Assembly (NCBI GenBank): GCA_963833575.1
Contig: CAWHXY010000007.1
Coordinates: 608,001-672,000 of the forward strand
Direction: 5' to 3'
Length of the DNA stretch: 64,000 bases
From: Candidatus Bathyarchaeota archaeon
Lineage (GTDB): Archaea > Thermoproteota > Bathyarchaeia > Bathyarchaeales > Bathycorpusculaceae
In this document: positions 12,723-54,502 of the stretch, piece after piece
Position numbering within the stretch: the first letter of the stretch is position 1
How the letters are laid out: each line of letters opens with the position of its first letter
Program-made: the position numbers and the translations under genes
The notes under the pieces: model-generated
The model's input: the letters and a program-made list of their open reading frames with translations, nothing else
What the model was told of the DNA's origin: nothing
Databases searched by the model: none

Positions 12723-13667
12723 TTGCCCAATCCGCTGCTAAGTCAAAAAGGTAAAGCTATCTTTATTACCCTGCTGGCTGGAGCATTATGGGGCACTTCT
12801 TTTCCAATAACAAAAATTGGGTTAACAGACACTGACCCGTTTGCATTTGTGTTCTGGCGGTTTCTAGTTTCAGCCTCAACTCTTTTAATAATCATGATAC
12901 TTCTAAAGAAAATGGATTTCAGAAAAATTCCAGACGTTAAACTTCTGGTTTTTCTTGGAATCACAAACGCCAGTGGCTATCTGCTCCAATATGTTGCTAT
13001 GGGGTCCACCACAGCGGCGAAAGCTGCGCTTTTCATAAATTTGAGCGCCATATGGGTTGCCCTTCTAAGTCCCAAACTGCTCGGTGAAACCTTCTCCAGA
13101 AAAAAAATCGTCGGCATAATCATTGGACTATTCGGCATCGTTTTTGTTAGCACAAACTTAGATTTTGCATCGTTAAGCGGTGGGCAATCCTTAGCAGACA
13201 TAACGCTTGTTATTTCAGGGTTCACTTGGGCAATATTTATGATCTACAATAAGAAGCTGGTTTCAAATTCCACTACTTCAGCAACTTTTCAATCGATGAC
13301 TTGGATCCTTTTGTTCACCTTCTTCTCCATAGCACCGTTTGCACTGTTGGCTGGACCTAACTTGTTTGATTTGTCAAGTTTTGCGTGGTTAGGGATTTTT
13401 TGGACTGCAATTGTTTGCTGGGTCATACCTTACTATTTGTGGCTTAAAGGGCTCAAACATCTTTCCGCCTCAACTTCAACTGTTTTGTTGTTGTCGGAAA
13501 TTGTGATGGCAGTTATCTTATCCATCGTTGTGCTAAAAGAACCAGTTACTGTATTTTCAAGTATTGGCGCATTCTTAATTGTCATAGCAATAGCACTTGT
13601 TTCCGTGCAAAATAAAAAAGCAAACAGCGGTAAAACCTCGTTGATTGACACTTTGGATAACGCTTAA
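12723..13667 (+). CDS. DMT/EamA family transporter
   Basis: LWGTSF..KIGL, two EamA repeats, about 10 TM segments. Confidence 0.9.
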   Translation: MPNPLLSQKGKAIFITLLAGALWGTSFPITKIGLTDTDPFAFVFWRFLVSASTLLIIMILLKKMDFRKIPDVKLLVFLGITNASGYLLQYVAMGSTTAAKAALFINLSAIWVALLSPKLLGETFSRKKIVGIIIGLFGIVFVSTNLDFASLSGGQSLADITLVISGFTWAIFMIYNKKLVSNSTTSATFQSMTWILLFTFFSIAPFALLAGPNLFDLSSFAWLGIFWTAIVCWVIPYYLWLKGLKHLSASTSTVLLLSEIVMAVILSIVVLKEPVTVFSSIGAFLIVIAIALVSVQNKKANSGKTSLIDTLDNA

Positions 13668-13692
13668 GCTTAAATACATAAAGTTGCGATAA

Positions 13693-14556
13693 ATGGCTGG
13701 GGAGAAAATAAAAAAAATGGCAAAAAACCTGACAATGGTTCTAGTTGTAATAATGCTCATTGTAGGCTTTGGTATCGGAATAATCGCTAGTCCGTTTATA
13801 GTGGCATCGAATAATTCATCGACAGACACAGTATGGACAAATATTGAGAAAAGAGGATACATTAACGTTGGGACAGACCCAAGTTGGCCACCCTATGAAC
13901 AGCTTGATAACGCGACAGGTGCAATCGTTGGATTCGAAGTTGATTTGGCAAACGCCTGCGCACAACAATTGGGGCTGACTATTCATTGGCATGATGTAAG
14001 CTTTGACGACATTATAACTGAGGTCCAAAATGGTCAACTCGACATGGGTGTTAGCGGTTTCTCAATAACAGCAGATAGACTTAACAGTGTATCATTTACC
14101 ATCCCACACACCACAACAGCGGCTCAACTCATCATGACTCAAAGCGAAATCAACAAGTTACACATAACCAATGGCACCATAACATCGCTAGCAGACGTCA
14201 AGAATCTAGGCTTGACTGTTGGAACTCAAGATGGCACAACTGAACAATCAGAGCTCCAAGCAGCTGGAGTTTCTGTGCGATCATGGGGAAGCTTTGCGGA
14301 TTCCATTCAGGACATGGCAAGCGCAAATCCAAGTGTACAGGCAGTTTATGCTGAAACTCCAATAACGACCGCTTGGATTGCTCAATACGCAGCTCAAGGC
14401 GTACCTATCGGCATTGTATACCAGCATCCATACTATCCATGTGCATTCGTAGTAAACAAAAACGCTCAAACTTTCCTTGCGAAATTTGACGGTGCAATTT
14501 CAAACATAATCAGTACAGGTCAACTAGATCAATTGAAAGCTAAATGGAATGCTTAA
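13693..14556 (+). CDS. polar amino-acid ABC transporter substrate-binding protein
   Basis: GTDPSWPPYE, GFEVDLA, ITADRL..VSFT, GTQDGTT. Confidence 0.9.
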   Translation: MAGEKIKKMAKNLTMVLVVIMLIVGFGIGIIASPFIVASNNSSTDTVWTNIEKRGYINVGTDPSWPPYEQLDNATGAIVGFEVDLANACAQQLGLTIHWHDVSFDDIITEVQNGQLDMGVSGFSITADRLNSVSFTIPHTTTAAQLIMTQSEINKLHITNGTITSLADVKNLGLTVGTQDGTTEQSELQAAGVSVRSWGSFADSIQDMASANPSVQAVYAETPITTAWIAQYAAQGVPIGIVYQHPYYPCAFVVNKNAQTFLAKFDGAISNIISTGQLDQLKAKWNA

Positions 14557-14572
14557 ACAAACGTGATTTGGC

Positions 14573-15223
14573 TTGGATGTTGGGCAAGAACTAATTTTCC
14601 TGATAGAGGGAGTCCCCCTCACTTTTTCCGTTTCCATCATCGCCTTTTTCGTTGGTTTGGGTATAGGGCTACCGTTGGCTTTCCTACGTGTATATGACGC
14701 TGAAGTTGGTTTCATCGTTGATGTATATGAGAAAGTCTTCAGGGGCATACCAGAAATTGTTCTAATGCTATTTCTTTTCTTCGGTTTAGGCCCAATCTTC
14801 AATTTTCCCTTCGGTAATCCTTTCTTTGTAGCAGCCCTGGTTCTGGGCTTGTCCAGCGGTGCTGATCAGTCTCAAATTTTCAGAGGCGCAATTCGAGGCG
14901 TCGGAGACGAGCAGATGATTGCTGCCCAATCCGTTGGCTGCTCTAAATGGAAGGGAATTTGGCATATTATGGTTCCTCAAGTTTTAACTTTTTCAACCTC
15001 AAGCTTAGGAAGCGAGTACGCGCTTTTAATCAAGAATTCATCGTATGTGTGGGTTATAGGCATATTAGATATCATGCAAAAAGCGCTTTATCTAAAAGTC
15101 GCGGATTATGACCCTATCGTCCCTTTCATCTTCGCAGCTGTATTATACGTTGCACTTACCTTTCCAATTGCTTTGTATCTTGATCGGTTAGGAAATAAAA
15201 GAAAGAAAAAAATAGGATTGTAG
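14573..15223 (+). CDS. amino-acid ABC transporter permease
   Basis: FRGIPEIV, EAA-like loop, PQ, LIKNSS. Confidence 0.9.
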   Translation: MDVGQELIFLIEGVPLTFSVSIIAFFVGLGIGLPLAFLRVYDAEVGFIVDVYEKVFRGIPEIVLMLFLFFGLGPIFNFPFGNPFFVAALVLGLSSGADQSQIFRGAIRGVGDEQMIAAQSVGCSKWKGIWHIMVPQVLTFSTSSLGSEYALLIKNSSYVWVIGILDIMQKALYLKVADYDPIVPFIFAAVLYVALTFPIALYLDRLGNKRKKKIGL

Positions 15224-15227
15224 AAAA

Positions 15228-15980
15228 ATGAGCGACATTATAATGGAAGCCAAAAACGTCTGCAAAAACTATGGCAAACTTGAAGCTGTAAAAGACGTGT
15301 CACTGCAAATCAGAAAAGGTGACATAAAACTGATCTTTGGCCCCAGTGGTTCCGGAAAAAGCACGTTTCTTCGCTGCATGGCAATGCTAGATATGCCTGA
15401 GTCGGGCGAAATTTACCTCAAAGAAGAATGCATCACAAAACCAGGCGTAGATTTGAATAAAGCGCGAGCAAGAATAGGCTACGTTTTTCAACACATTTAC
15501 CTGTTTAGGAATCTTACGGCTTTGGGAAACGTAGAGTTGGCTCTTAAACACGTGCTTAAATTGCCGAAAGATCAGGCGCGTGAGCGCGCGTTAGCCGCGT
15601 TAAAAGAAGTGAAAGTGCTTGAGTGCAAAGACCGCTATCCCTCCCAAATGTCTGGCGGGCAAGCGCAAAGAGTAGGAATCGCACGTGCCATCGCCCGCAA
15701 CCCCGACATCATATTACTCGATGAACCCACATCAGCTTTAGACCCTGAACTTACAGGAGAAGTCATCGACACGTTAAGAGATCTTGCACATGAAGGAACA
15801 ACCATGCTTATCGTTAGTCACGAGATGCCGTTTGCACGTGAAGTTGCCGAAGAGATGATTTTCTATGACGAGGGAAGCATCTTAGAAACAGGAACGCCAG
15901 ATCACTTTTTCAATGCACCTGATAGTGATCGAGCAAAAAAATTCATGACGAGAATAATTAACAAAACAACCCGAGAATAA
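15228..15980 (+). CDS. amino-acid ABC transporter ATP-binding protein
   Basis: GPSGSGKST, MSGGQAQR, DEPTSALDPEL, SHEMPFA. Confidence 0.92.
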   Translation: MSDIIMEAKNVCKNYGKLEAVKDVSLQIRKGDIKLIFGPSGSGKSTFLRCMAMLDMPESGEIYLKEECITKPGVDLNKARARIGYVFQHIYLFRNLTALGNVELALKHVLKLPKDQARERALAALKEVKVLECKDRYPSQMSGGQAQRVGIARAIARNPDIILLDEPTSALDPELTGEVIDTLRDLAHEGTTMLIVSHEMPFAREVAEEMIFYDEGSILETGTPDHFFNAPDSDRAKKFMTRIINKTTRE

Positions 15981-15983
15981 ACA

Positions 15984-16661
15984 ATGTTTGGACAATTTGG
16001 GCCTGTCTTGCTTCATTGGAATTGGATCCTTCAAGGACTACAGTTGACAATTGAAATTACGCTTTTCGGGGTCTTTTTAGGGCTAGCTTTGGCAATCGTG
16101 CTGGCAATTGGCGATATTTACGGAAACAAGGTACTTAAGGGAATTATCGCAGTTTATGTAGAAGCTTTTAGAGGCAGTCCATTGCTTGTTCAATTATTAA
16201 TAGCTGAATACACCATACCAGCAATAACGCATATTCCAATTGACCCGTATATTACAGCTTTCGTAGTTTTTGGAATAAACAGTGCCGCATACCAGAAAGG
16301 CTACCTCAAAGGGGCAATGGAAACCATATACGAAGATCAAATGCAAGCTGGGCTGTCAACAGGTATGTCCAAATGGCAAACCTTAAGGTACGTCATTATT
16401 CCTCAAGCTTTGCGTATTGTTATTCCTTCGTGGACAAACGAGTTCTGCTCTCTAACAAAGAGTTCCTCTGTTGTATCTTATGTGGGATTATATGACGTAG
16501 TGGGCGCAGGCAGAGAAGTAATTGGACAATTCTATATTGTTCTCCCAGTCTGGTTAGTCATTGGATTAATTTATCTAGCGTGGATTACCGGGTTCACGAA
16601 ATTAATGGATTACATTTACGAGAAAAAGAAGATTCCTGGCGTAGAACTGCTAATGCAGTAA
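15984..16661 (+). CDS. amino-acid ABC transporter permease
   Basis: FRGSPLLVQL, IIPQALR, NEF..LTKSSS. Confidence 0.9.
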   Translation: MFGQFGPVLLHWNWILQGLQLTIEITLFGVFLGLALAIVLAIGDIYGNKVLKGIIAVYVEAFRGSPLLVQLLIAEYTIPAITHIPIDPYITAFVVFGINSAAYQKGYLKGAMETIYEDQMQAGLSTGMSKWQTLRYVIIPQALRIVIPSWTNEFCSLTKSSSVVSYVGLYDVVGAGREVIGQFYIVLPVWLVIGLIYLAWITGFTKLMDYIYEKKKIPGVELLMQ

Positions 16662-16970
16662 ACGGAGCGTTTAGACGTTTAGTTTCTTAATTAGCCACGC
16701 AATGCAATTCTGCCCAAGCTTACCGAATAATTATTCAGTCTTGGACCAATGAGTTTTGTTCTTTGACAAAAAACACTTCAACATTTAAAGTTCTTTTATT
16801 CGAGCAGTTGAAATAAAGTTATGTTTATCAAAGCTTTCGTTTGAATTTTACTTTATTCTCATCCTAATACTAAAGTCTACTCTTAATTTCTTAGGATAAT
16901 ACAGAAAAAAACAAGTTAGAACTGAGGTGAGCTTTCGATGCCTTCAAGCTGTGAGTTCTGTTCAAATATT

Positions 16971-17578
16971 TCAAATCAAATTGACTATTGATTTGTACTC
17001 TATTTTTGCAACAGTATAGTTCTCTTGCACACTTGGGTTGATAATGTAAAAAGTTAATACCTGACCTATTTTTTGTACTGGTGAATAATCGGTTGCTGAA
17101 ACTAATGGTCCCCAACTTTCTGGAACACTGAAATTCTGAGAACTTCCAGCGTCAATGTACATTGATTGCGTGGTTGAGTTTTCCGTTGTGGAAGTTGGTC
17201 CAATTGGTTGTCCAATGACATTGTAACCCTCAATGGTTTGTATCATGACAACTGAGAAAGTTCCGCTCTGATTATCAAGATTCATTACGCTAACATAACT
17301 TGGAAAATACAAGTTTTGGGAAAACGAGTTCTTAGAATCTATTGTTCCATGAATTGGTAATTACTTTGCAGAGTTTTCGTTCTTTGCTCTTGTATAGCGA
17401 TCTTTATGGGAATTATAGGTTCTGTTACAACAAGAATAATTGCAATCGTAATTACAACAGCTAAAACTGGCACGATAAGTCGTTTGTATTTGGACAGATA
17501 TTTGTTTGGAGTTTTGGGAATCAAAGTAGTTTGTCTGAAGTATTTACGCTTCATCTTAGGTCGGATATTGCTTACCAT
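16971..17578 (-). pseudogene. membrane-anchored protein split by a 1-bp frameshift near 17350
   Basis: TM-bearing ORF 17339..17593 overlaps an open second frame (GTIDSKNSFSQNLYFPSY) that continues into ORF 16971..17312. Confidence 0.6.
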
Positions 17579-17615
17579 AAAAACATAAAGCAATCATAAC
17601 AGATAAAAGGCTACT

Positions 17616-17657
17616 CGTAAAAGTTCCTTGACTGAGTTTAGTCAAACTTTCTTGACT
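17616..17657. repeat. family A four-hexamer junction element, copy 1
   Basis: CGTAAA agttcc TTGACT gagttt AGTCAA actttc TTGACT. Confidence 0.9.
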
Positions 17658-18403
17658 TGGCTGGTTTTTCGATGCCTAAGCATTAACAGAAGAGGTATCG
17701 CTCCGAGGATTGCAAATAGTGCTCCAATAATCAGTGAAGAGGAAATGAGACTGTTCCATGACATCTTTAGGTCTGAATACCAATCTGGTAACAAATAGTT
17801 GTTGCTTTCAAAGTTGACCCATAAGTTGGATAAACCAAAAAAGAGAATGCTTGTACCACCAGCAAGAGAAACAGATGCAAGTCTTCTTCCAATGCCAATA
17901 CCCCATATTATTCCGAGAACAATCAAGAAAGAACCAATTAAGAGGTACCCCAAAAGAGTTACCTGCATATTGAACACCACTAACGAGATTAAAAATTGTG
18001 GCGAAACATCAGGCGGCACAATATCTTGTACTGGGACGGACAAATTCCAAAAATCAATAATATTGATATACCAATGTACCCAATAAACCAATAAAATGTA
18101 CGTTACAATTGCTATGAGCGTAAATCCAACTGCTATTAAGCAGTAGAACACTTTGCTTTTGATTTGTCGAATTATTGCAATCCCGATAACGGCAGAAAAT
18201 GCCCCTGCAATTAAGCAAACGCTAATGAGTGGTGCTTGAACATACCAGAAATAAAATCGATTCAGATAGCCCTCGGCTGAAAACTCGTTGATTTCAAGAT
18301 AATATGCTAATATGACTACTGCAATAATAATTAAGGCTAATCCGATAGCAACTGGAATGTATCCTCGTTTGTCTTTTTTCTTTGTCTTTTCCAAAGTTGC
18401 CAT
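17642..18403 (-). CDS. multi-pass membrane protein
   Basis: About 6 hydrophobic segments; ends RHRKTSQVKKV with stop inside repeat A1. Confidence 0.75.
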   Translation of the reverse strand: MATLEKTKKKDKRGYIPVAIGLALIIIAVVILAYYLEINEFSAEGYLNRFYFWYVQAPLISVCLIAGAFSAVIGIAIIRQIKSKVFYCLIAVGFTLIAIVTYILLVYWVHWYINIIDFWNLSVPVQDIVPPDVSPQFLISLVVFNMQVTLLGYLLIGSFLIVLGIIWGIGIGRRLASVSLAGGTSILFFGLSNLWVNFESNNYLLPDWYSDLKMSWNSLISSSLIIGALFAILGAIPLLLMLRHRKTSQVKKV

Positions 18404-18405
18404 AA

Positions 18406-19570
18406 CTACTCACTCAAGTTAGCGGTTTTTCGACTCCTTCGATAAATCAGCAATAGGACAACGACAACTAAGATGATTACGAGAGATGTAATTAAAATAA
18501 TCATAAGAGCACTCAGATATGGAAGCGGATGATGGTCAACGTTATTAGCGTCAATAACATAAGCAAACGGGTTATTGTAATCACTCCAATAATTGCCAGT
18601 TGACCCTTTATCCCATAAAACCATATCTGTTCCATTATTAACATAGCCAACGTCATATGGAAACGCATGTTCGACTTTTGCGTTTATTTTATTGTAGATA
18701 AAATGATTGTTATAGACAACGTTTCCTATACCTAATGGGTAGCCATCAACTCTAAGTGGAGCGAGAGATGAAGCTGTTGCAAAATTCATCAGGTCAATGC
18801 CTATTTGATTGTAGGCTAAATTATTATCCTGTACGATAGAATCACTACAATTTTCGCCAAATTGGATACCGTATCCAGTATTGTATGCTATGTTATTACT
18901 GTTAATGTAGAAAGGACCGTAAAAGCGAATAAGCACACCATTTGCATTATGTGATATATCGTTGTGATTCACAGTTACATTTTGGCTTGAATCAATAATT
19001 ATCGCTGTACCTTTGTTATCAGTTATGGTATTGTTTGAGATTTATGCTATTTGACGAAGCGAAGTAAATACCGTAGCCATCATTATTTGTTATGCTGTTT
19101 GAAGAGATAACGTTATTATCGCTAACTTCTGAGTCAATTCCTGCAAATTCGGAGTTTTCAATTTTGTTGTTGGTTATTTTGCAATTGCTGTTTGGCAAGT
19201 GTATTGCCGTTGGATAAAAACTACTGATAATTGTAAAACCTGAAAGGACAACATTATCGACTGTAATATCAATTAAGGCATTTGCGTAATAACTTGCTGT
19301 TCCTTCAATAGTTGTTGCTTGGTTATCCTGTCCGATTAATGAAACAGATTTGTTAATAGTTATTCCCGTGAATCCTGTAATATTGTATATTCCATCTTTT
19401 ACATACACGGTGTCTCCTGCACTTGCATTGCCTATTGCTTCTTGAATGGTTGGGTATTGGTCGGGAACAACAAGCGTTTTTGGGGAATCAGCCTTAACAA
19501 CAGAGTTTGAAACTAAAACTAACGACATTCCAAAAAAGAAAACAATCACTAAGGCTAAACACTTGTTCAT
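18406..19570 (-). pseudogene. NosD/CASH right-handed beta-helix surface protein, frameshifted near 19042
   Basis: VPDQYPTIQEAI..GDTVYVKDG, Asn-ladder repeats, GNYWSDY, C-terminal TM + RRSRKTAN; removing one A joins both ORFs. Confidence 0.8.
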
Positions 19571-19629
19571 ACTACCCCATCCCTCTTCCTTAATCTTGTC
19601 ATGGGCTGATGGTTCAATAAAAGTATTGC

Positions 19630-19671
19630 AGTAAAACTTCCTTGACTGCTATTAGTTAAACTTTCTTGACT
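19630..19671. repeat. family A element, copy 2
   Basis: AGTAAA acttcc TTGACT gctatt AGTTAA actttc TTGACT. Confidence 0.88.
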
Positions 19672-19703
19672 TGCTGTCTTCAAGTCTTCTTTTCAAGTGT
19701 TTT

Positions 19704-19790
19704 AAACTCAAACCCTCCGGCATTTTAGGCGGGGAATCGAATTGAACCCACACTCCAGTAGAGATTTCACCCGCATTTCCCCTTTTTTTT
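19704..19790. repeat. family B repeat, copy 1
   Basis: AACTCAAACCCTCCGGCATTTTAGGCGGGGAATCGAATTGAACCCACACTCC..., ending in a T-run. Confidence 0.85.
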
Positions 19791-19864
19791 ACGTGAACCT
19801 TCCTTTTATCAAGGTAATCGTTTAGAGTTCAGTTTAAATTCTGGAAACCAAACGAAAGAAAGCA

Positions 19865-19919
19865 GGGGGTTGGACTTGTACCCACACTTCTGTGGAAACC
19901 CATCCTCATTTCTTTTTTT
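19865..19919. repeat. family B repeat, degenerate partial copy
   Basis: GGGGGTTGGACTTGTACCCACACTTCTGTGGAAAC... followed by a T-run. Confidence 0.55.
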
Positions 19920-20002
19920 AATCAAATTTTGTTCGAGCTATTCGTCCTGACTACCTTTTAAATCACGATAATTCAATACAGCCAACCTCAAAAAGAAAAA
20001 GC

Positions 20003-20194
20003 ATGACATCTTCTAACCAAAATGTGACTGGCAGTTATGCAGTTTGCCCAAAATGTGGTTTTAAAAGGATAACAAAAGATGGAACCTATAGGATGGAAAC
20101 AAAACATGGAATGAATTTTTTCTTAGTAGATGCTTACGTCTGTGATAATTGCGGTTATATTGAGTTTTATAAGATGAGAGAGCCTATTTTGTGA
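20003..20194 (+). CDS. small Zn-ribbon protein
   Basis: CPKC...YVCDNCGYIEFY. Confidence 0.7.
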   Translation: MTSSNQNVTGSYAVCPKCGFKRITKDGTYRMETKHGMNFFLVDAYVCDNCGYIEFYKMREPIL

Positions 20195-20305
20195 CCAGTT
20201 TTTGAAGAGTACCGCTTTTGCCGTTGCTCCTTTCAATGTTCTTTGTTGCTGTGATAGTTAGGAATCGAAAAACCGCAAACATGAAATGAGATAACAGAGT
20301 CAGGG

Positions 20306-20389
20306 TTGAACTCAAACCCTCGGGCACTTTAGATGGGGAATCGAATTGAACCCACACTCCTTGGAGACTTCTCTGCATCTCCTTTTTTT
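20306..20389. repeat. family B repeat, copy 2
   Basis: TTGAACTCAAACCCTCGGGCACTTTAGATGGGGAATCGAATTGAACCCACACTCC..., ending in a T-run. Confidence 0.85.
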
Positions 20390-20392
20390 GTT

Positions 20393-20683
20393 CTAAGAAG
20401 GGTTCTGTTTTGTGTCTTCGCTCGTAGTTATTATTATTCTTCCTCGAATTCCAAGATAACCTGCCGCTACGACTACCAACCCAAGAATAAATATGACAAT
20501 GCCACCGCTTACATGTGAAAGAGCCCCCGTGTTAGCTAAAGTTATGCTGCCAAAATTAGTTAACCCATTAATGGCATTGAAAAATCCAGAACTTATTAAA
20601 ACAACACCTAATAAAGCAATTATTGCCCAAAAAATCTGTATAGTGGGTCTACCAATCTTGATAATTATCGTCATTCTGGTCAC
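20393..20683 (-). CDS. small two-TM membrane protein
   Basis: Two hydrophobic helices. Confidence 0.6.
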   Translation of the reverse strand: MTRMTIIIKIGRPTIQIFWAIIALLGVVLISSGFFNAINGLTNFGSITLANTGALSHVSGGIVIFILGLVVVAAGYLGIRGRIIITTSEDTKQNPS

Positions 20684-20702
20684 CTTTCATAAGCTACAAC
20701 GC

Positions 20703-21527
20703 TTAAAAGATTTTAGAACTTAATGTTTTTTGATACCTTAGTATTATTGCAACAGAGAGCGTCATGAGAAACAAAGGCAGAATCGCCCACAAAGGAAACT
20801 CCGGAACGGCAGGAGTTGGAGTCGGCGATGATGTTGAAGTTGGCGTTGGAGTTAACGTTGAGTTTAAGGATAACGGGGTAGGCGTTGGGTTTGACGAGGG
20901 AGATGCAGTGATTGAAGTAGAAGTTGACCCGTTAGATATGGTTATGGTTTGTGTGTTGCTCCAACCGCTTGATTGACCTGTAAAGTCTTCAGCACCATAA
21001 AGGGAATAAGGGGAAGGAACCGTTATCCAATACCCTATTGTTGCTTCTACTTGAAAGTCTACTTGACCGCCAGCGATAACTTCGGCTTGACCGGTGTTCC
21101 AGATTGGAGTGTATGAACCATTATACAGGGTCACCTCATAGCTGATGACCGTGTATTCAGAATTACTCGCAGGAACCCATGTGGAAATTGTATTCCATTC
21201 GTTGCCGTTGCTGAAATGTCCTTCTTCCTGAACGTTGTACGTCAAGCTAAGTGTGGTGCCGTTCTCAAGAGCGTTCGCATTAAAAGCTTGGTTTAGAATC
21301 ACAATCTGCACCGTGTCGTTGGCATACGTGTGCGTTACGGTTGCTCCTGTATCCGTATTTGTTGTGTTCACACTGTAAGATGATTCAGTGTATGTTACAC
21401 TAAACTCTGGAGCCGATGGTGTGGGTATCGACTGAGCAAATACGGGTTTAACTATCATTAGACTTAAACTTGAGATAGCGATGATTAGAATCAGAATAAC
21501 TGCGAAACTCTTGATTGTTCTTCCCAT
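20703..21527 (-). CDS. secreted surface protein with Thr/Pro linker and PEF-CTERM-like anchor
   Basis: Signal peptide; C-terminal AVPEFP-TM-basic tail (archaeosortase-type sorting signal). Confidence 0.8.
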   Translation of the reverse strand: MGRTIKSFAVILILIIAISSLSLMIVKPVFAQSIPTPSAPEFSVTYTESSYSVNTTNTDTGATVTHTYANDTVQIVILNQAFNANALENGTTLSLTYNVQEEGHFSNGNEWNTISTWVPASNSEYTVISYEVTLYNGSYTPIWNTGQAEVIAGGQVDFQVEATIGYWITVPSPYSLYGAEDFTGQSSGWSNTQTITISNGSTSTSITASPSSNPTPTPLSLNSTLTPTPTSTSSPTPTPAVPEFPLWAILPLFLMTLSVAIILRYQKTLSSKIF

Positions 21528-21564
21528 AGTTATAGCTAGAAATGATTTTGGATAAAAGACTTCT

Positions 21565-21606
21565 CGTAAAAATATCTTGACTGATTTAAGTCAAAGTTTC
21601 TTGACT
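21565..21606. repeat. family A element, copy 3
   Basis: CGTAAA aatatc TTGACT gattta AGTCAA agtttc TTGACT. Confidence 0.9.
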
Positions 21607-22515
21607 TCCTGAGTTAGCGGTTTTTCGATGCCTTCTATAAAATACTACGCTTAAAACTACTATGACGACTGCTCCACTTGAGACAATGACAATACTTAAC
21701 GTTGGCAAGTTAGTCGGCATAGGCAAAAAACCCTCAGTCTTTATAAGGTAAATTGTGCCCGACATTGGGATATCAACCGCCTCATATCCGACTCCCATTA
21801 TAGCAAGTGCGCCATCGGAAGTTTCAATTACTGAAGCTACCTTAAGAGGAGTAGCATATCCATATGGGTTCGTATAGTTCAAATTTAACACCCATTGAGT
21901 GTTATTATTGGAATCGGTTTTGATTATGCTTCCACCTGTCCAATAAGCAAACCCATCATCGCTTGTTCTAATCTTTCCGACTGATGAAGGGTCTAAATCG
22001 ACTAATGAAGAAGTCAATGAAGGAGTTACTTCTAAATTCGGAACGCTTGAATAGTTTCTAACAGATTCAATGTTTCCTTGAGGGTCCATTTTGATAAGAT
22101 TATATTCAAAAGCAGAATTATCCCAATATCCTGAAACTTCCAGTCCTCTATCGCTTGTCTGCTTAATTGCTAATCCAAGAATGTTATTGATGGCTTTTGT
22201 CCAGTTGATATTTCCCGAAGAGTCAACCTTGAAAACTATTGAGGGTGCAAAATTACCGTAAGAACCCCAACCTTCATCCATGAAGACATACCCACCATCA
22301 CTTGTCTGAATCAGATTGGAAACAGCTGCGACACCTTGAACCATATTGGTTACAGCTTGAACACCTGTGCCGTTGAAAAAAGCACCATATGTTTGTTGCC
22401 AAGCTATAGCAGGTGCTTGATTACTTGACTGTGCCTTGACAATGGTTGGTTGAACGGTTACTAAAGGTGTTAGAAGTAAGACAAGAACACTCATTAAAGC
22501 CAAACACTTGTTCAT
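21586..22515 (-). CDS. surface protein with QTSDGG repeats (beta-propeller-like) and C-terminal TM
   Basis: Signal peptide; repeated IQTSDGG / LxKxDxxGNxxW; ends RRHRKTANSGSQETLT inside repeat A3. Confidence 0.8.
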   Translation of the reverse strand: MNKCLALMSVLVLLLTPLVTVQPTIVKAQSSNQAPAIAWQQTYGAFFNGTGVQAVTNMVQGVAAVSNLIQTSDGGYVFMDEGWGSYGNFAPSIVFKVDSSGNINWTKAINNILGLAIKQTSDRGLEVSGYWDNSAFEYNLIKMDPQGNIESVRNYSSVPNLEVTPSLTSSLVDLDPSSVGKIRTSDDGFAYWTGGSIIKTDSNNNTQWVLNLNYTNPYGYATPLKVASVIETSDGALAIMGVGYEAVDIPMSGTIYLIKTEGFLPMPTNLPTLSIVIVSSGAVVIVVLSVVFYRRHRKTANSGSQETLT

Positions 22516-22572
22516 TCTATCCCATCAATCTTCCTTAACCTGTGAGGGAGCTATTGATGATAAAAAGATATT

Positions 22573-22614
22573 CGTAAAGGTTCCTTAACTGAAATTAGTC
22601 AAAGTTTCTTGACT
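22573..22614. repeat. family A element, copy 4
   Basis: CGTAAA ggttcc TTAACT gaaatt AGTCAA agtttc TTGACT. Confidence 0.9.
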
Positions 22615-23571
22615 TCCTGATCTAGCGGTTTTTCGATGTCTCCTATAAATTAACAGAACAATACTTGAGGCAACAACTACCGCTAAAAGTGCAATTATTA
22701 GAATTTGTTCATTAACGGTTATTATGTTGGGAGCTGGTGTGGGACTTGGTAAAGGTGTCGATAAAGGACTTTGTGACGGCAAAGGCAAAAATGCAGCAGT
22801 TTTCATTAAATAAATAGGACCCCATAAACCTTGAGGTTGCAAATAAGGGTCTGCAATGCCAAGACATGCAAGTGCTCCATCTGATGTTTCGATGATGGAA
22901 AATATTTTAAAAGGAAAAGTGATGGTGCCATTATAATAATTTGAAGGAATTGGATAAGGGAAATTTTCAATCCATTGTGTATTGTTATTTGGATTAGTTT
23001 TCACAAGGGTAGGAAAAGACGTTACTGTAGGAAAAACGTTTGAGTTTGCTGGTTCAAAGTAAGCGAACCCACCGTCGCTGGTTTGAATATTTGATGAGGC
23101 AATGGCTAAGTCTAAAACCGTAATTGTGTTTTCATACCATTGCATATTTCCCTTAGAATCGGTTTTAATGACAGCTGGTGTGTCAACGTAGGTGGTTCCG
23201 TATGTTGACCATTGTCCTGATATTTCATATCCGCCATCGCTGGTTTGAATGAGGTTTGACGCTGTAAATGATTTGATAGTTTTATTCCATTGCATATTGC
23301 CTAAAGAATCAAGCTTGTAGAGAATTGCAGGAGTAAAAAAGGTCTGGTAGAACTTGGCGCAATCTAAAAAGGCGTATCCACCATCACTTGTTTGAATCAA
23401 ATTAGAAACTAATTGAGTATTTCCTGACCCATATAATTTTTGCCATTGGGTGGCAGGAAAGGAAGTGGTGCTTGAGGTTTGGGCTGAAACTAAAGTAAAT
23501 TGAAGAATTATTAAAGATATTATGAAAACAGCAACGAGGAATGAATCGAAACTTTTGCTTAAACTACGCAT
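22585..23571 (-). CDS. surface protein with QTSDGG repeats, paralog of 21586..22515
   Basis: Same repeats; ends RRHRKTARSGSQETLTNFS inside repeat A4. Confidence 0.8.
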   Translation of the reverse strand: MRSLSKSFDSFLVAVFIISLIILQFTLVSAQTSSTTSFPATQWQKLYGSGNTQLVSNLIQTSDGGYAFLDCAKFYQTFFTPAILYKLDSLGNMQWNKTIKSFTASNLIQTSDGGYEISGQWSTYGTTYVDTPAVIKTDSKGNMQWYENTITVLDLAIASSNIQTSDGGFAYFEPANSNVFPTVTSFPTLVKTNPNNNTQWIENFPYPIPSNYYNGTITFPFKIFSIIETSDGALACLGIADPYLQPQGLWGPIYLMKTAAFLPLPSQSPLSTPLPSPTPAPNIITVNEQILIIALLAVVVASSIVLLIYRRHRKTARSGSQETLTNFS

Positions 23572-23608
23572 AATTACACAAAAGAATCGTATTCGATAAA
23601 AGCCTATT

Positions 23609-23650
23609 CGTAAAAGTTCCTTGACCGAGTTTAGTCAAGGTTTCTTGACT
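23609..23650. repeat. family A element, copy 5
   Basis: CGTAAA agttcc TTGACC gagttt AGTCAA ggtttc TTGACT. Confidence 0.9.
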
Positions 23651-23677
23651 TGACTGTTTTCGAGCCACCGTTTAGCG

Positions 23678-23759
23678 TTGAACTAAAACTCTCCGGCAAT
23701 TCAGGTGGGGAATCAAATTGAACCCACGTAGCAGTGGAAACTTTCCTTGAATCTCTTTT
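23678..23759. repeat. family B repeat, copy 3
   Basis: TTGAACTAAAACTCTCCGGCAATTCAGGTGGGGAATCAAATTGAACCCACGTAGCAGTGGAAAC. Confidence 0.8.
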
Positions 23760-23813
23760 ACTGAAATTAGGGTTTGAAATTTGTTGCGGGCTAGTGGCAA
23801 ACATATTTGATTG

Positions 23814-24389
23814 TTAAGATTTGAGTTTTTTTAGCAGCCAAGCTATATTTTGGCCTAAGTCATCCATTGTTTGCATGGCTTCGTTATCTTTTTCAACATC
23901 GCCTTTGTTTAAGCCTATTCCTATATTCCAATAGGATGAGCCAGGAATTATCATCTCGCTAATGAGAAAGAAATGATTTATAGCATCAAATGTCGGAATT
24001 GCACCTGCCCTTCGAACTGCAACAACTGCGGCACCAACTTTTCTCCTAAATAAATCAGAATTAGCTCGACTGACAAATCCTGAACGATCAATAAGAGCTT
24101 TCAATTCAGAAGACATCATTGAAAAATAAGTTGGAGAACCAAGGATAATTCCATCTGCCGCAACCATCTTTTCGATATATAGGTTAACATTATCGTTTAC
24201 AATTTTGCATTGCTTATTTTTGATTTTGAAGCATACACCGCAAGCTGTGCAACCGTGAATTTGCTCGCCTGCTAACTGAATTAGTTCGGTTTCTATTCCT
24301 TCACTTTCAAGAACCTGCAAGACCCGGCGAATCAAAATAGCAGTGTTTCCATCTTTCCGTGCGCTTCCATTAAAAGCAACAACCTTCAT
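23814..24389 (-). CDS. iron-sulfur flavoprotein (flavodoxin-like, Isf family)
   Basis: [23 protein letters not shown]. Confidence 0.9.
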
Positions 24390-24438
24390 TTTACAAACCT
24401 CTAAATGTAGCTTAGAGATTTAGGATAAAAAAGTAGCG

Positions 24439-25371
24439 TCAAGAAATTTTTCTCTTTCTCATCCGCTTAATGGTAAACACCGCCGCAAGCAACACCGCAG
24501 ATAACGATATTCCAAAAACTATTGCTTCAACTGTTATCATTGATATTTGAGTAGATGATTTAATCGGACTTTGCATCAACGGAAACCGATCCCGATCTAA
24601 AACATCAATTGCATAGGGAGTATCGCCTATTCCATCATGATTTGTGTCGGTGCCATTATAATCGCTCCAGTAATTTCCCTGTTTTCCATTATCCCAATTG
24701 TGCGGCGGCTCTGACATATTGTACGTTTTACATTGGCAACCGCTAAGTTGGACTTTATTGTTTTCAAAATCGTTTTGAAATACCATTATGTCGTTTGGGA
24801 CTACCCCCGTATTGAAGCCCATAAATACGCCTCGCATATTGTCGGAAATGTAATTTTGTGATAATGTGGCATTTGAGCCTGAAATCAATAATCCAACAAT
24901 ATTATCGGAGACAGTATTTCTGGTTACAGTATTGTTTTGGGTCCAGATGTACATGCCAATACTGAAGTTCTCGACGTTTAAGTTCTCAATTGTAATTCCA
25001 TTTACGCTCTTATTTCCTAAGTCAATGCCTATAGTGTATTTGTCCAGGGTGTTTGGGTCTGGTCCAGTTCCTATAACCCATATGTCTGTTGAGTTGCCGT
25101 TAAACGGACCCCTGAGCGTGTAGCCAGCGCCGTCAAGAACTGTATTACTTTTCAAGATTTTTATCGCTGCGTAAACGTTATCAATAAAAGTATAGATGTT
25201 TCCACTTCTCTGAATTGGCGCGGTGTCAGGGTAAATACTCCCGTCAGGTTGAATGAAAATTGTTGGTAGAACCGGTTGCGCGTTGGCGGATTTAAATACA
25301 AATATTGGTGAAACGAGTGCTAAGAAGATCATTATTGAAACTTTAGTTTTCTGAGCTCTCAATTTCCTCAT
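24439..25371 (-). CDS. NosD/CASH beta-helix surface protein
   Basis: IQPDGSI, LDGAGYTL, WDNGKQGNYWSDYNGTD..DGIGDTPY, C-terminal TM. Confidence 0.85.
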   Translation of the reverse strand: MRKLRAQKTKVSIMIFLALVSPIFVFKSANAQPVLPTIFIQPDGSIYPDTAPIQRSGNIYTFIDNVYAAIKILKSNTVLDGAGYTLRGPFNGNSTDIWVIGTGPDPNTLDKYTIGIDLGNKSVNGITIENLNVENFSIGMYIWTQNNTVTRNTVSDNIVGLLISGSNATLSQNYISDNMRGVFMGFNTGVVPNDIMVFQNDFENNKVQLSGCQCKTYNMSEPPHNWDNGKQGNYWSDYNGTDTNHDGIGDTPYAIDVLDRDRFPLMQSPIKSSTQISMITVEAIVFGISLSAVLLAAVFTIKRMRKRKIS

Positions 25372-26993
25372 TCACTATCTACCTTACCATCGTTCGAATT
25401 TATTAACCAGTTCCTAGACCTACAAACCGTTTTTCCAGCAAACTTAAACTGCAAACAATCCTCATATGGACACATCTCAATGCAGCGCAAACACCAGATA
25501 CACTGGGATGAAGCCACATCTCCACTTTTTTGCTCATACACTTCTTTGTCTTGGGTCGGGCAAACTCTCTTGCAAATACCACATTTCTTGCATTTCTCAG
25601 ATTGCTTATTCAAGCGCACGCCGGAAATCCATTTGAACGGCGGAAACCTGTTAAACAGCGCTATCAAACCGCCTAAAGGGCAAATTCTACACCATGACCG
25701 CCTAAAGAAGAACGCAGCAATAGTGACAACGGCTAAAATAATTAGATTCTCAGAGGTTAAATAGAAACCAAGCTGGTAAAATGCGCCTCCAGTTGTTTGC
25801 GTGATCCAATCTGGCCTTTGCAAGCTCAATCCAACGTCTGCTAACATGCAAAATGGTTTCATAGGGCAAACTTGGCAAAACGGCGCTGAAAAGTAATTGT
25901 AGACAAAGCCTCCTTTTTGAGTTCCAGGCACCAATTGAGTTCCAGCAATGGCTTGTGAGCCGAAAATAATGCTGAGTATGATAATAAGCGCTAGGATAAG
26001 ATAGCTTAACTGGTGAAATCGTTCGTTAAACTTGTCTGAAAAGCTTCTCCGCTTAATCCTTAATACTCTTCTTAAACGAGTCATCAAATCCAAATACAAG
26101 CCAAACGGGCAGACCCACCCACAGAAGATTCTTCCAAGAATAACAGCCGACACAATCACAACACCAAAAACTATAGCTAATCTAGCCAAGCCAGTGGAGT
26201 CATAATGTACACCCCAACCTTCTCCAACATTAAAGAACGGGTAAAGATACGTTTGAATTTGCCAAAGAGCACAAGTAACGGTTCTACCGCAAGGATAATA
26301 GCATCCGAAGAAGGGCACCGGCAGCCCATCAGGCAGTGATACTCCAAAGGCGCTAGTTGCAACCAGTGAACTATGCGGAGACAGTTCCTCGATGGGCAAA
26401 GACAGGTATTGGTGGTCAATGAAGACGCCGAAGAAAATCAGAAATAAAACGCCTATCTGAAACAGGAGCCTAAACGAACTGATCTTTATGGTTTTATTTC
26501 TAACTCCCAAAACTGCTGTAGCAACACCTAAGCTAATCAAAGCCGCAGTTGCCCCAAATACCGAATAATTCGGATGATACACTAGCGGTATGGCAGGAGG
26601 AGGAGCAGTTGGGTTAGGGTTGGCTGGATCAGTTACCTGAGCGAATAATCTATCGGCAATAACGCCGTTTATAGCAAAAATGTTCCAGTATCCAGCTGTA
26701 TCGAGTTTTTCAGTAACACTAAAATTGCCAGTGGTAGGGTCAGATAAGACATCTTGCTCTAGGTATGAGAAGTCGGGTCGTGTATAAACTACTCTTACGT
26801 ACTTATTTTCACCTGGCGGACAAATTTGCCCTGTTACGGTGACGGTCTGGTTAACGTTAATTTGGGTCACGTTTATGTTGGCTGTTACGCATGGGCCGTA
26901 GCAAGAGTTGGCTAGTTGAACATAATCTACGCTGACAAGGTAAGTGGTGATTATGATTGCAACAGTTAAACAGAGAACAGTTCGTCTTTTAAT
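25368..26993 (-). CDS. NapH/MauN-like membrane 4Fe-4S protein with extracellular N-terminal domain (probable ATT start at 26993)
   Basis: GRIFCGWVCPFG, FCQVCP, WCRICPLG, two CxxCxxCxxxCP; frame open upstream of the track start up to ATT behind GGTGAGG. Confidence 0.8.
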   Translation of the reverse strand: MKRRTVLCLTVAIIITTYLVSVDYVQLANSCYGPCVTANINVTQINVNQTVTVTGQICPPGENKYVRVVYTRPDFSYLEQDVLSDPTTGNFSVTEKLDTAGYWNIFAINGVIADRLFAQVTDPANPNPTAPPPAIPLVYHPNYSVFGATAALISLGVATAVLGVRNKTIKISSFRLLFQIGVLFLIFFGVFIDHQYLSLPIEELSPHSSLVATSAFGVSLPDGLPVPFFGCYYPCGRTVTCALWQIQTYLYPFFNVGEGWGVHYDSTGLARLAIVFGVVIVSAVILGRIFCGWVCPFGLYLDLMTRLRRVLRIKRRSFSDKFNERFHQLSYLILALIIILSIIFGSQAIAGTQLVPGTQKGGFVYNYFSAPFCQVCPMKPFCMLADVGLSLQRPDWITQTTGGAFYQLGFYLTSENLIILAVVTIAAFFFRRSWCRICPLGGLIALFNRFPPFKWISGVRLNKQSEKCKKCGICKRVCPTQDKEVYEQKSGDVASSQCIWCLRCIEMCPYEDCLQFKFAGKTVCRSRNWLINSNDGKVDSE

Positions 26994-53789: not shown

Positions 53790-54236
53790 TTACCAAGCTC
53801 CTTCTGTTCCATGTATTTCAAAATGCTCATCTGTAGCGATATGGTTGAACGTCATCTGTAAAGAGTTGTGTGTGCCATCATTAGATAATGTGTAACGGTT
53901 AGGACTTTGTATGTAGTACTTCCAGACCAGCGAGATGTTTTCCGAAATTAAGTCAGTTGGAACTGTTATGTCGAAGAAAACAGTTTTTCTATATGACCCA
54001 ACGAAATCAACTGAAACATACTTCAAATCAGTCAAAGATGAGTTAGATAAGTAAACCTTTGGTGCAGAATTCCAATTGGTACTAACAGTTATAATGTATG
54101 TCTTCTCTCCAACTGAAATAGGATAAGTGTATAATTTGCTCTCTGCGATTTCAAACCATAAGAGCCCACTTATTATTGACGTGATAAGGATTGCTGCTAT
54201 AACGGTTATTACTAATTTTCTTCTCTTCATAAGCAC
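53790..54236 (-). CDS. membrane-anchored hypothetical surface protein
   Basis: KRRK + TM, then a beta-rich domain. Confidence 0.7.
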   Translation of the reverse strand: MLMKRRKLVITVIAAILITSIISGLLWFEIAESKLYTYPISVGEKTYIITVSTNWNSAPKVYLSNSSLTDLKYVSVDFVGSYRKTVFFDITVPTDLISENISLVWKYYIQSPNRYTLSNDGTHNSLQMTFNHIATDEHFEIHGTEGAW

Positions 54237-54269
54237 CGATTAGTTGATTATTTTGACTATAAAGGTTTC

Positions 54270-54311
54270 AGTCTAAGTTTCTTGACTGCCCTTAGTCAAG
54301 GTTTCTTGACG
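54270..54311. repeat. family A element, copy 6
   Basis: AGTCTA agtttc TTGACT gccctt AGTCAA ggtttc TTGACG. Confidence 0.85.
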
Positions 54312-54417
54312 ATTCACCTTTTTATAAATCACACTAAAAAAAAGAAAGTTAAGCATAAAGAGTTTGCAGTAGTGGTTTTTTTAAAAGAAACTCCCGATAA
54401 CTGGGGTTTGCATGTAG

Positions 54418-54502
54418 TGCAGAGGGTGGGATTTGAACCCACGAACCTCTACAGGATAGGCTCCTGAAGCCTACGCCTTTGACCATGCTCGGCGACCTCT
54501 GC
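54418..54502 (-). tRNA. tRNA-Leu(CAG)
   Basis: Acceptor GCAGAGG/CCTCTGC + A; anticodon stem TAGGC/GCCTA with loop TTCAGGA; long variable arm. Confidence 0.95.

Follow-up and report, generated by a model that had tools for sequence, protein, structure and literature searches.

A conserved 56-bp double-dyad promoter module and a predicted surface-protein regulon in an uncultured genus of Bathyarchaeia

A 64,000-nucleotide stretch from the genome of a Candidatus Bathyarchaeota archaeon—'the window', corresponding to C7:608001-672000 of genome G000 (2.75 Mb in eight contigs, C1–C8; other G numbers denote other genomes)—contains a 42-bp element, made of two palindromic sites in tandem, that punctuates an array of surface-protein genes. 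The first-pass annotation of this DNA offered two explanations for it: that the genes are integron-like cassettes rearranged by a recombinase acting in trans, or that the element serves as the operator of a surface-protein regulon, which spread as its modules were duplicated. Promoter geometry, conservation and the genes that follow the element all support the second. We think it very probable that the element is a transcription-factor site in the promoters of a lineage-specific surface-protein regulon, and not a recombination site. Bathyarchaeia are abundant, uncultured sediment archaea, and a search of the open-access literature found no cis-regulatory motif or regulon described for them; nor, among the papers listed and as judged by their titles and abstracts, did it find anything apparently related to AGTCAA/TTGACT in archaea. 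What we describe is a new cis-regulatory module and a predicted surface-protein regulon in an uncultured archaeal genus, together with a regulator that is plausible but unproven.

When the window is searched for TTGACT-N6-AGTCAA-N6-TTGACT with up to two mismatches, ten matches are found, on both strands, at six places: five in the array and one, copy 6, on its own (Table 1). Most of the places match on both strands because the site is palindromic. One hundred dinucleotide-preserving shuffles of the window gave 0.00 matches. Aligned on the minus strand, all six copies are in register without insertions or deletions, and read AGTCAA-N6-TTGACT-N6-AGTCAA-N6-TTTAC[G/T]. In copies 1–5, TTTTAT begins 7 nt past the element (CTTTTAT[C/T] after 6 nt), and copy 6 has CTTTATA at a comparable place; all six, then, have a TATA-like box 6–7 nt downstream. 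In copies 1, 3 and 4 the stop codon of the gene upstream lies inside the element. The pattern search, the shuffles and the alignment thus bear out the original description of the copies, down to the two tandem palindromes, the fixed 7-bp step to the TATA-like box and the three enclosed stop codons. Rfam, applied to the window at the gathering threshold, recognizes three tRNAs only, and does not match the element.

The element is part of a longer unit. In an alignment of 52 sites, 37 from other species and 15 from G000, information content is high at positions 1–56 and approximately zero on both sides, over the preceding 29 nt and from position 57 on. Conservation includes positions that played no part in site selection: GAAA at 7–10, within the spacer of the first site, which is itself conserved and asymmetric; the fourth hexamer, TtTACg, at 37–42; and the stretch from 43 to 56, in which an A-rich ...AGC leads into CTTTTATc. 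Because conservation, these positions included, covers exactly 1–56, the unit is 56 bp long: two 18-bp dyad sites whose centres are 24 bp apart, followed by a hexamer resembling the B-recognition element (BRE) and a TATA box. Site 1 is AGTCAA-N6-TTGACT and site 2 is AGTCAA-N6-TTTACG, so that four hexamers succeed one another at 12-bp steps. The centres of the AGTCAA and TTGACT half-sites are 12 bp apart, about one helical turn, as in a dyad, and the pair is present twice. The 6 nt between the element and the TATA box, CTTTTATC in copy 5, are the BRE-like A-rich ...AGC stretch. The box itself resembles the GC plus TTTAAAT or TTTAT boxes upstream of the tRNA genes of G000.

The spacing is much the same in other species. 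Fifty-two loci from other species of the genus yielded 96 matches (up to two mismatches, both orientations), and a TATA-like box occurs near 43 of them: at an offset of 48 in 37, of 47 in three, of 49 in two and of 51 in one. The remaining 53 are mostly the same sites in reverse orientation. The 37 forward sites with the offset of 48 come from 13 other species, and in these, as in the G000 copies, the position of the box immediately after the element is fixed, which is the behavior of a promoter-proximal site. The rigidity attributed to the element from the window alone holds for the window copies, but not for every species; the orthologous promoter of the array's 328-amino acid (aa) protein gene in G016 (L082:4940-5000) has a 7-nt spacer in site 1 and 5 nt between element and TATA box. 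The module thus does admit indels, and its geometry is strongly, rather than absolutely, fixed. Measured from the start of the element, the ATG most often lies at 78–80 nt (15 of 36 sites), which is 22–24 nt past the TATA box. This is where archaeal transcription normally starts, and it suggests that many module genes would give leaderless mRNAs.

G000 holds about 15–20 copies of the element on six or seven of its eight contigs. A scan with a position weight matrix (PWM) returned 15 sites above 30 bits, on C4, C5, C6, C7 and C8; 12 of these were the seeds of the matrix, and the remaining three are C8:163296, C5:18096 and C6:75465. Weaker or variant sites emerged from the mismatch and PWM scans at C2:22384, C7:360881, C4:13948, C4:1178909, C1:68240 and C7:13197. 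Nearly all of the sites are followed, at an unchanged spacing, by the same TATA-like box. In addition to the array of five in the window, there are groups at C8:157-164 kb (three sites) and C6:3.9-7.9 kb (two sites), and several solitary copies.

The element extends to related species as well as across contigs. Allowing up to one mismatch, 17 of 24 further genomes from the genus contain it, versus none of 16 from other genera of the order, and the reversed pattern, used as a control, gave no matches in all 41 genomes. A class-wide draw of 300 other genomes found it in 7 of 14 from the genus and 2 of 3 from a sister genus; outside these, it was found in none of 31 from other genera of the family and 3 of 252 from other families, all of them single matches. 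To judge from these genomes, the module appears to be lineage-specific, marking one genus of Bathyarchaeia and a sister genus; the class itself is indicated by the source names on homologues of one of the organism's proteins. Orthologues of the array's 328-aa gene in G023 and G016, 83% identical at the nucleotide level, each have an element of their own in which the half-sites are kept and the spacers differ. Conserved at orthologous or functionally related promoters, between flanks that are not conserved, the element changes in the manner of a transcription-factor site.

The genes behind the element point the same way. Of the 37 forward sites in the 13 other species, 36 have a downstream open reading frame (ORF), and 35 of these ORFs begin with a hydrophobic, signal-like segment. 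Twenty-seven of the 33 that are complete combine such a segment with a C-terminal membrane anchor, as against 128 of 2217 crude ORFs of G000 (5.8%) under the same rule. In G000 itself, each of the 12 strongest sites is followed by an ORF that has one or more membrane or signal segments, and the downstream ORFs in the window have a hydrophobic or signal-like segment at the N-terminus, a membrane anchor at the C-terminus, or the two together. The first-pass annotation had regarded the downstream genes as all encoding membrane or surface proteins, mostly of unrelated families; the segments in the window agree with the former, but not all are unrelated, the 328-aa and 309-aa proteins being paralogues (37% identical).

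Pfam and NCBIfam searches of the array proteins found NosD/beta-helix domains and no others; the 328-aa protein matched nothing in either collection, and no sorting-signal model matched. Inspected by eye, several targets have tails of the type ..VPEFP.., ..VPELSW.. or ..IPEFPSW.., followed by a transmembrane (TM) segment and K/R, although no NCBIfam model matches these. The PEF/PEL-plus-TM-plus-K/R tails of many targets in relatives look like the PEF-CTERM archaeosortase signal; other targets end in YRRHRKT, instead. G000 has two genes of the PF09721 exosortase/archaeosortase family. There are also targets other than surface proteins: a winged-helix protein (at the C4:1178909 site), a phosphodiesterase-family protein whose gene lies ~125 nt from the TATA-like box of the C1:68240 variant, and, on C2, ~300 nt without an ORF. 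The C2 variant (L003:5000-5400, minus strand) has a perfect second palindrome, its ORF-less stretch precedes a radical-SAM gene, and the site is kept in G009 (L091). The stretch has no Rfam match at E <= 0.1, and is possibly a long leader or an RNA of some new kind. Variant elements in G001, G012 and G022 (L105, L116 and L117) stand directly upstream of a gene for a conserved Cys-containing protein of 56–68 aa, which tblastn did not find in G000.

Where an ORF runs into the next element, the element encodes the end of the protein. The tail SGSQETLT is identical in the 328-aa and 309-aa proteins (22585-22614 and 21586-21606) because the junction and the element encode it, and the 253-aa membrane protein and its homologue at C8:163281-163982 both end ..VKKV inside an element (17642-17657; C8:163281-163296). 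Two reading frames are used to encode these conserved tails, SGSQETLT.. and ..VKKV, and so it is a constraint on the DNA that has been imprinted on the protein tails.

Archaeal activators typically bind immediately upstream of the BRE, according to the passage on them in PMC5512572. We think it most likely that a dimeric or multi-domain winged-helix protein would occupy both dyad sites of the module, ~38–80 bp upstream of the transcription start, and that, once bound, it would touch the complex of TFB and TBP with BRE and TATA, either recruiting these factors or blocking them. Transcription would start 22–24 nt past the TATA box, frequently with the A of the ATG as its first nucleotide. Because the core promoter looks near-consensus, the regulation might be of either sign; activation by recruitment is an even prospect, repression by occlusion a somewhat lesser one, and some combination of the two would be unlikely. 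Genes of the regulon would accumulate in a variable island, where ordinary recombination might duplicate or convert them, the 56-bp modules providing short homology.

A candidate for the protein that binds comes from one of the variant elements, C4:1178909, which lies 91 nt upstream of a gene for a different 328-aa protein (C4:1179000-1179983; L001:3001-3987). This protein matches Pfam HTH_45 at 1.3e-10 and HTH_5 (ArsR-type) at 3.4e-06, and homologues of it turned up in 23 of the 24 genus genomes and in 5 of the 16 from other genera. Its paralogue in G000 is encoded at C4:595199-596128. The family, whose members are about 315–330 aa long, is widespread in Bathyarchaeia (1479 database matches at E <= 1e-10). 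An alignment of 33 sequences shows four cysteines that never vary, C28, C31, C39 and C43 (CxxC-x7-C-x3-C). The AlphaFold model (pLDDT 78.9) has an N-terminal helical Cys4 region, three winged helix-turn-helix (wHTH) units and a long C-terminal helix; Foldseek found no full-length relative of it in the PDB, and returned single-domain matches to HlyU, SqrR and PadR with a best E of 0.047. The tree built from 41 homologues has a clade of 14 (clade E, SH-aLRT 98) to which all 12 of the genes with an element within 350 nt upstream belong, seven with both sites and five with one; outside the clade there are none in 27. G250 provides a further case (element C5:225758-225799, gene from C5:225882). The element-bearing clade is fast-evolving. 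A conserved element in its own promoter is a classic sign of an autoregulated regulator, and the Cys4, triple winged-helix family is thus our tentative candidate for the regulator of the module, somewhat short of an even prospect.

The whole array occupies a species-specific island. In G003, G042, G058 and G012, whose sequences we checked, the ABC-transporter operon (13008-16700) abuts the FMN-reductase block (23812-26900) with 35–300 nt between them; G011, G070, G059, G002 and G066 have the same array-less arrangement by coordinates, and overall the array is absent from at least nine congeners. G009 has 2.3 kb of unrelated cytoplasmic genes at the locus and no element, and in G013 the flank is rearranged. 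At 16676-16720, beside the ABC-permease stop codon, ~45 nt remain of what was the 3' end of an FMN-reductase gene, a relic that marks where the ancestral neighbor was truncated as the island and another FMN-reductase copy came in. From the relic and the gene order in congeners it follows that the array arrived by replacement or by illegitimate recombination. Neither edge of the island carries an element. Set against the first-pass annotation's own test of the cassette idea, whether relatives differ with breakpoints at the element, the result is mixed: gene content at this locus does vary between species, but by replacement of the whole island and with no exchange of cassettes at elements. The one public DNA run found to contain the locus (share 0.34) and two runs of the same study give short contigs there at ~2–4x, too sparse for excision or rearrangement to be assessed; they show no joints, and one ambiguous contig touches two elements.

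Within the island, the array copies share only the ~56–60-bp module, with 77–88% identity, and homology between copies, and between G000 and G016, stops at the distal edge of the element (21607, 23649). The tandem units of the 328-aa and 309-aa genes are 1036 and 1008 bp long, each bounded by elements. Two paralogous loci make up the mosaic of the 274-aa gene: C8:156534-157336 matches 20767-21607 at 85% identity, and C6:81869-82313 matches 20343-20783 at 95%.

Several points tell against our interpretation. The test for surface proteins was a crude hydropathy rule applied to crude ORF calls. Three of the conserved hexamers were used to select the sites, and their information content is partly circular. 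The core BRE and TATA sequences look close to the tRNA boxes, and promoters that are not obviously weak weaken the case for an obligate activator. Recombination at the element would also produce junctions like three of the five in the array, in which an ORF extends into the element that follows. As to the candidate regulator, elements occur in genomes without a clade-E paralogue (five matches in G007, four in G015, three in G016, six in G043 and four in G222); G005 and G234 have element matches, and no homologue of the candidate was found in them; and G006, G017, G018 and G023 have clade E without a strict element match. The element-bearing paralogue may be only a target, and the binder the conserved paralogue or another protein altogether.

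How do other explanations compare? That the units are integron-like—promoter-carrying cassettes moved by a tyrosine or other site-specific recombinase, encoded elsewhere, with the element as its core site—would account for hexamers inverted around 6-bp spacers, for genes and sites that alternate in one orientation, and for locus content that varies between species. The genome does encode recombinases: there are five PF00589 (Phage_integrase) matches, at C6:133344, C1:827, C2:778, C7:19451 and C4:4201, and two of these lie 6–10 kb from the weak or variant elements C7:13197 and C4:13948. The whole-genome search agrees with the first-pass annotation that none is in the window, however, and none is near the array: the nearest on the same contig is C7:19451, and there is none within ~590 kb. 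(Four of the five, C1:827, C2:778, C4:4201 and C7:19451, lie less than 20 kb from contig starts, and are possibly integrated elements at assembly breaks.) Tyrosine-recombinase core sites have inverted arms of ~11–13 bp around a crossover spacer of 6–8 bp, whereas the arms here are 6 bp. Integron attC sites act as single strands of ~57–141 nt folded into bulged hairpins, whereas the single-strand folding of the window copies is inconsistent, at -0.6 to -6.1 kcal/mol, with z-scores below -2 in two of the six. Each unit, moreover, has its own TATA box at a fixed distance, here and in 13 other species; most copies in the genome are solitary and precede single genes; orthologues in different species keep the element upstream; and the edges of the island are free of it. 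With no integrase nearby, weak folding and a promoter for every unit, the integron reading is not supported, and we hold it to be highly improbable. Some of the same evidence bears on the idea that the 56-bp unit is a mobile promoter, akin to a miniature inverted-repeat transposable element, that transposes in front of genes. Many near-identical copies (80–88%) with sharp boundaries would be expected of such an element, but information content in the flanks is about zero, so that no target-site duplication is visible, and, the internal palindromes aside, terminal inverted repeats are lacking. Copies stand almost exclusively before one functional class of gene, at a promoter-like distance from the start codon, and are conserved at orthologous genes across species; transposition is hardly credible as their origin.

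Two other possibilities stay closer to the promoter. The upstream block might be read by a chromatin protein or by an alternative basal factor, a paralogue of TFB or TBP, and so define a promoter class for envelope genes. Element and BRE/TATA do form one contiguous conserved block with fixed spacing, and the hexamer adjacent to the BRE deviates in a conserved way (TTTACG versus TTGACT), but twofold-symmetric hexamer pairs at a 12-bp distance characterize dimeric helix-turn-helix proteins, and not TFB–BRE contacts, and we find this very unlikely. The module might also serve as a substrate for RadA-type homologous recombination, and as portable homology by which promoter-plus-gene units are shuffled, a role that would add to, and not exclude, that of a transcription-factor site. 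The shuffling, between surface-protein loci, would proceed by gene conversion and unequal crossing-over and would call for no recombinase of its own. The island that at least nine congeners lack, the tandem paralogues in element-bounded units, the mosaic 274-aa gene, the three ORFs that end inside the next element and the halt of homology at the distal edge of the element can all be read in this way. Selection on the element alone, though, would produce the last as well, which means that the breakpoint is not located; 56 bp at 80–88% identity make a poor substrate for homologous recombination; and the island's edges have no element, the left one being the truncated FMN-reductase relic. This added role is unlikely, though by no means far-fetched. 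Appreciably less likely is a specific dual role in which the module both binds a master regulator of the surface proteome, a Cys4 triple winged-helix protein that senses redox state or metals and reads all four hexamers, and acts as a handle for integrase-free cassette recombination. Readings of the element as a replication-origin (origin recognition box, ORB) sequence or as a clustered regularly interspaced short palindromic repeat (CRISPR) were dropped because the copies occur one per promoter, at irregular 1–2-kb spacings and on many contigs.

Table 1. Features of the array and of the solitary copy 6, in window coordinates
Feature	Position	Strand	Details
Species-specific island (7.1 kb) holding the whole array	16706..23811	.	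Between ABC-transporter operon (ends 16661) and FMN-reductase gene (stop 23814)
Element copy 5	23609..23650	-	PWM score 64.5; first promoter of the array; two tandem palindromic sites
TATA-like box of copy 5	23595..23602	-	6 nt downstream of the element
328-aa secreted repeat protein	22585..23571	-	Signal-like N-terminus, C-terminal TM, YRRHRKT tail; ATG 23 nt past TATA
Element copy 4	22573..22614	-	PWM score 62.4; contains stop codon and last 9–10 codons of upstream 328-aa gene
309-aa paralogue of the 328-aa protein	21586..22515	-	37% identity
Element copy 3	21565..21606	-	PWM score 59.0; contains stop codon of upstream 309-aa gene
274-aa surface protein	20703..21527	-	Signal peptide, Thr/Pro-rich linker, ...VPEFP, TM, basic C-terminus; PEF-CTERM-like by eye
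Element copy 2	19630..19671	-	PWM score 56.6
NosD-like right-handed beta-helix surface protein	18406..19570	-	Split: 19019-19570 (signal peptide) and 18406-18972 (TM anchor)
253-aa polytopic membrane protein	17642..18403	-	Without its own element; homologue of C8:163281-163982 protein
Element copy 1	17616..17657	-	PWM score 65.6; contains stop codon of upstream 253-aa membrane-protein gene and encodes its VKKV tail
TATA-like boxes of copies 4, 3, 2 and 1	22559-22566, 21551-21558, 19616-19623, 17602-17609	-	Equivalent to that of copy 5
Last array unit	16971..17593	-	Single-pass membrane ORF of 79–84 aa (17339-17593; ATG 23 nt past TATA) and 113-aa ORF (16971-17312)
Element copy 6	54270..54311	-	PWM score 55.1; solitary, outside the array; upstream of 148-aa ORF (53790-54236) with N-terminal membrane segment

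A few other features of these loci deserve mention. The split in the NosD-like gene is likely a frameshift, a pseudogene or an assembly error; upstream of the gene there are ~500 nt of ORF-poor DNA with fragments of repeats (19790-20300). Copy 6 is flanked on both sides by TATA-like boxes (54255-54330). Just upstream of it is a gene for tRNA-Leu (54417-54502, minus strand), and the plus direction has no coding sequence before this tRNA. An intergenic repeat of ~90 nt, distinct from the element, occurs directly upstream of copy 5 (23674..23755, minus strand), outside the 56-bp module, with further copies at 20302-20390 and 19700-19789 and a partial one at 19865-19919 (minus strand). This repeat has ~25 nhmmer matches at E < 0.01, including some at C8:18-27 kb, C8:157-165 kb and C6:74-82 kb. 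It usually starts just after a stop codon, is directly upstream of an element in four cases, and clusters in surface-protein regions. It has no Rfam match in the window at the gathering threshold, and the consensus folding of seven copies is weak (-7.0 kcal/mol, with compensatory changes in 3 of 15 pairs).

The 56-bp module provides a handle on the control of surface display—of adhesins, beta-helix proteins and proteins with archaeosortase-type anchors—in these archaea. Scanning metagenome-assembled genomes of the genus for it is a simple means of predicting their surface-proteome genes, and the module itself could be used as a native promoter/operator in future genetics or in heterologous assays. 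It also prompts caution: tandem members of a regulon, in arrays of genes and palindromes, can mimic integrons. Were the dual role to prove true, we would be looking at an integrase-free cassette system that diversifies the cell surface, its units duplicated, swapped and stacked into species-specific islands.

Among known systems, the integron, with attC and IntI, is similar in that genes alternate with short, imperfect inverted repeats, in one orientation and in a variable region. Integron cassettes are normally promoterless, however, and depend on a common promoter beside intI/attI, whereas each unit here has a TATA box and there is no integrase nearby. TrmB and the Thermococcales glycolytic motif (Tgr), SurR and NrpR offer a further parallel: a short palindrome fixed with respect to BRE/TATA, a coherent, lineage-wide set of genes, and a regulator that is often autoregulated. 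The module differs from these in its surface-proteome targets, its rigid 42-bp double site and its candidate Cys4, triple-wHTH regulator. Ptr2 of Methanocaldococcus jannaschii, an Lrp/AsnC protein with AT-rich-centred sites, and TFB-RF1 of Pyrococcus furiosus activate transcription by recruiting TBP or TFB. They, too, use tandem palindromes or a site upstream of BRE/TATA, as a passage in PMC5512572 mentions, but their promoters have a weak TATA or BRE, and the core of the module looks near-consensus. The ara-box of Sulfolobus, as outlined in the same source, is a consensus box directly upstream of BRE/TATA that confers regulated expression on several promoters; it differs in motif, in lineage and in gene class, which is sugar metabolism. 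The closest known arrangement is that of EarA at the fla promoter of Methanococcus maripaludis, where four 6-bp sites lie directly upstream of BRE/TATA in the promoter of a cell-surface structure, and the activator is required for transcription (PMC5512572, in the part that deals with it). EarA sites share one consensus, given as TACATA in the relevant part of PMC10665913, and serve essentially one operon. Here, in Bathyarchaeia, the motif is another and so is the lineage, and the four hexamers form two inverted-repeat pairs, set at 12-bp steps, in front of some 15–20 promoters per genome.

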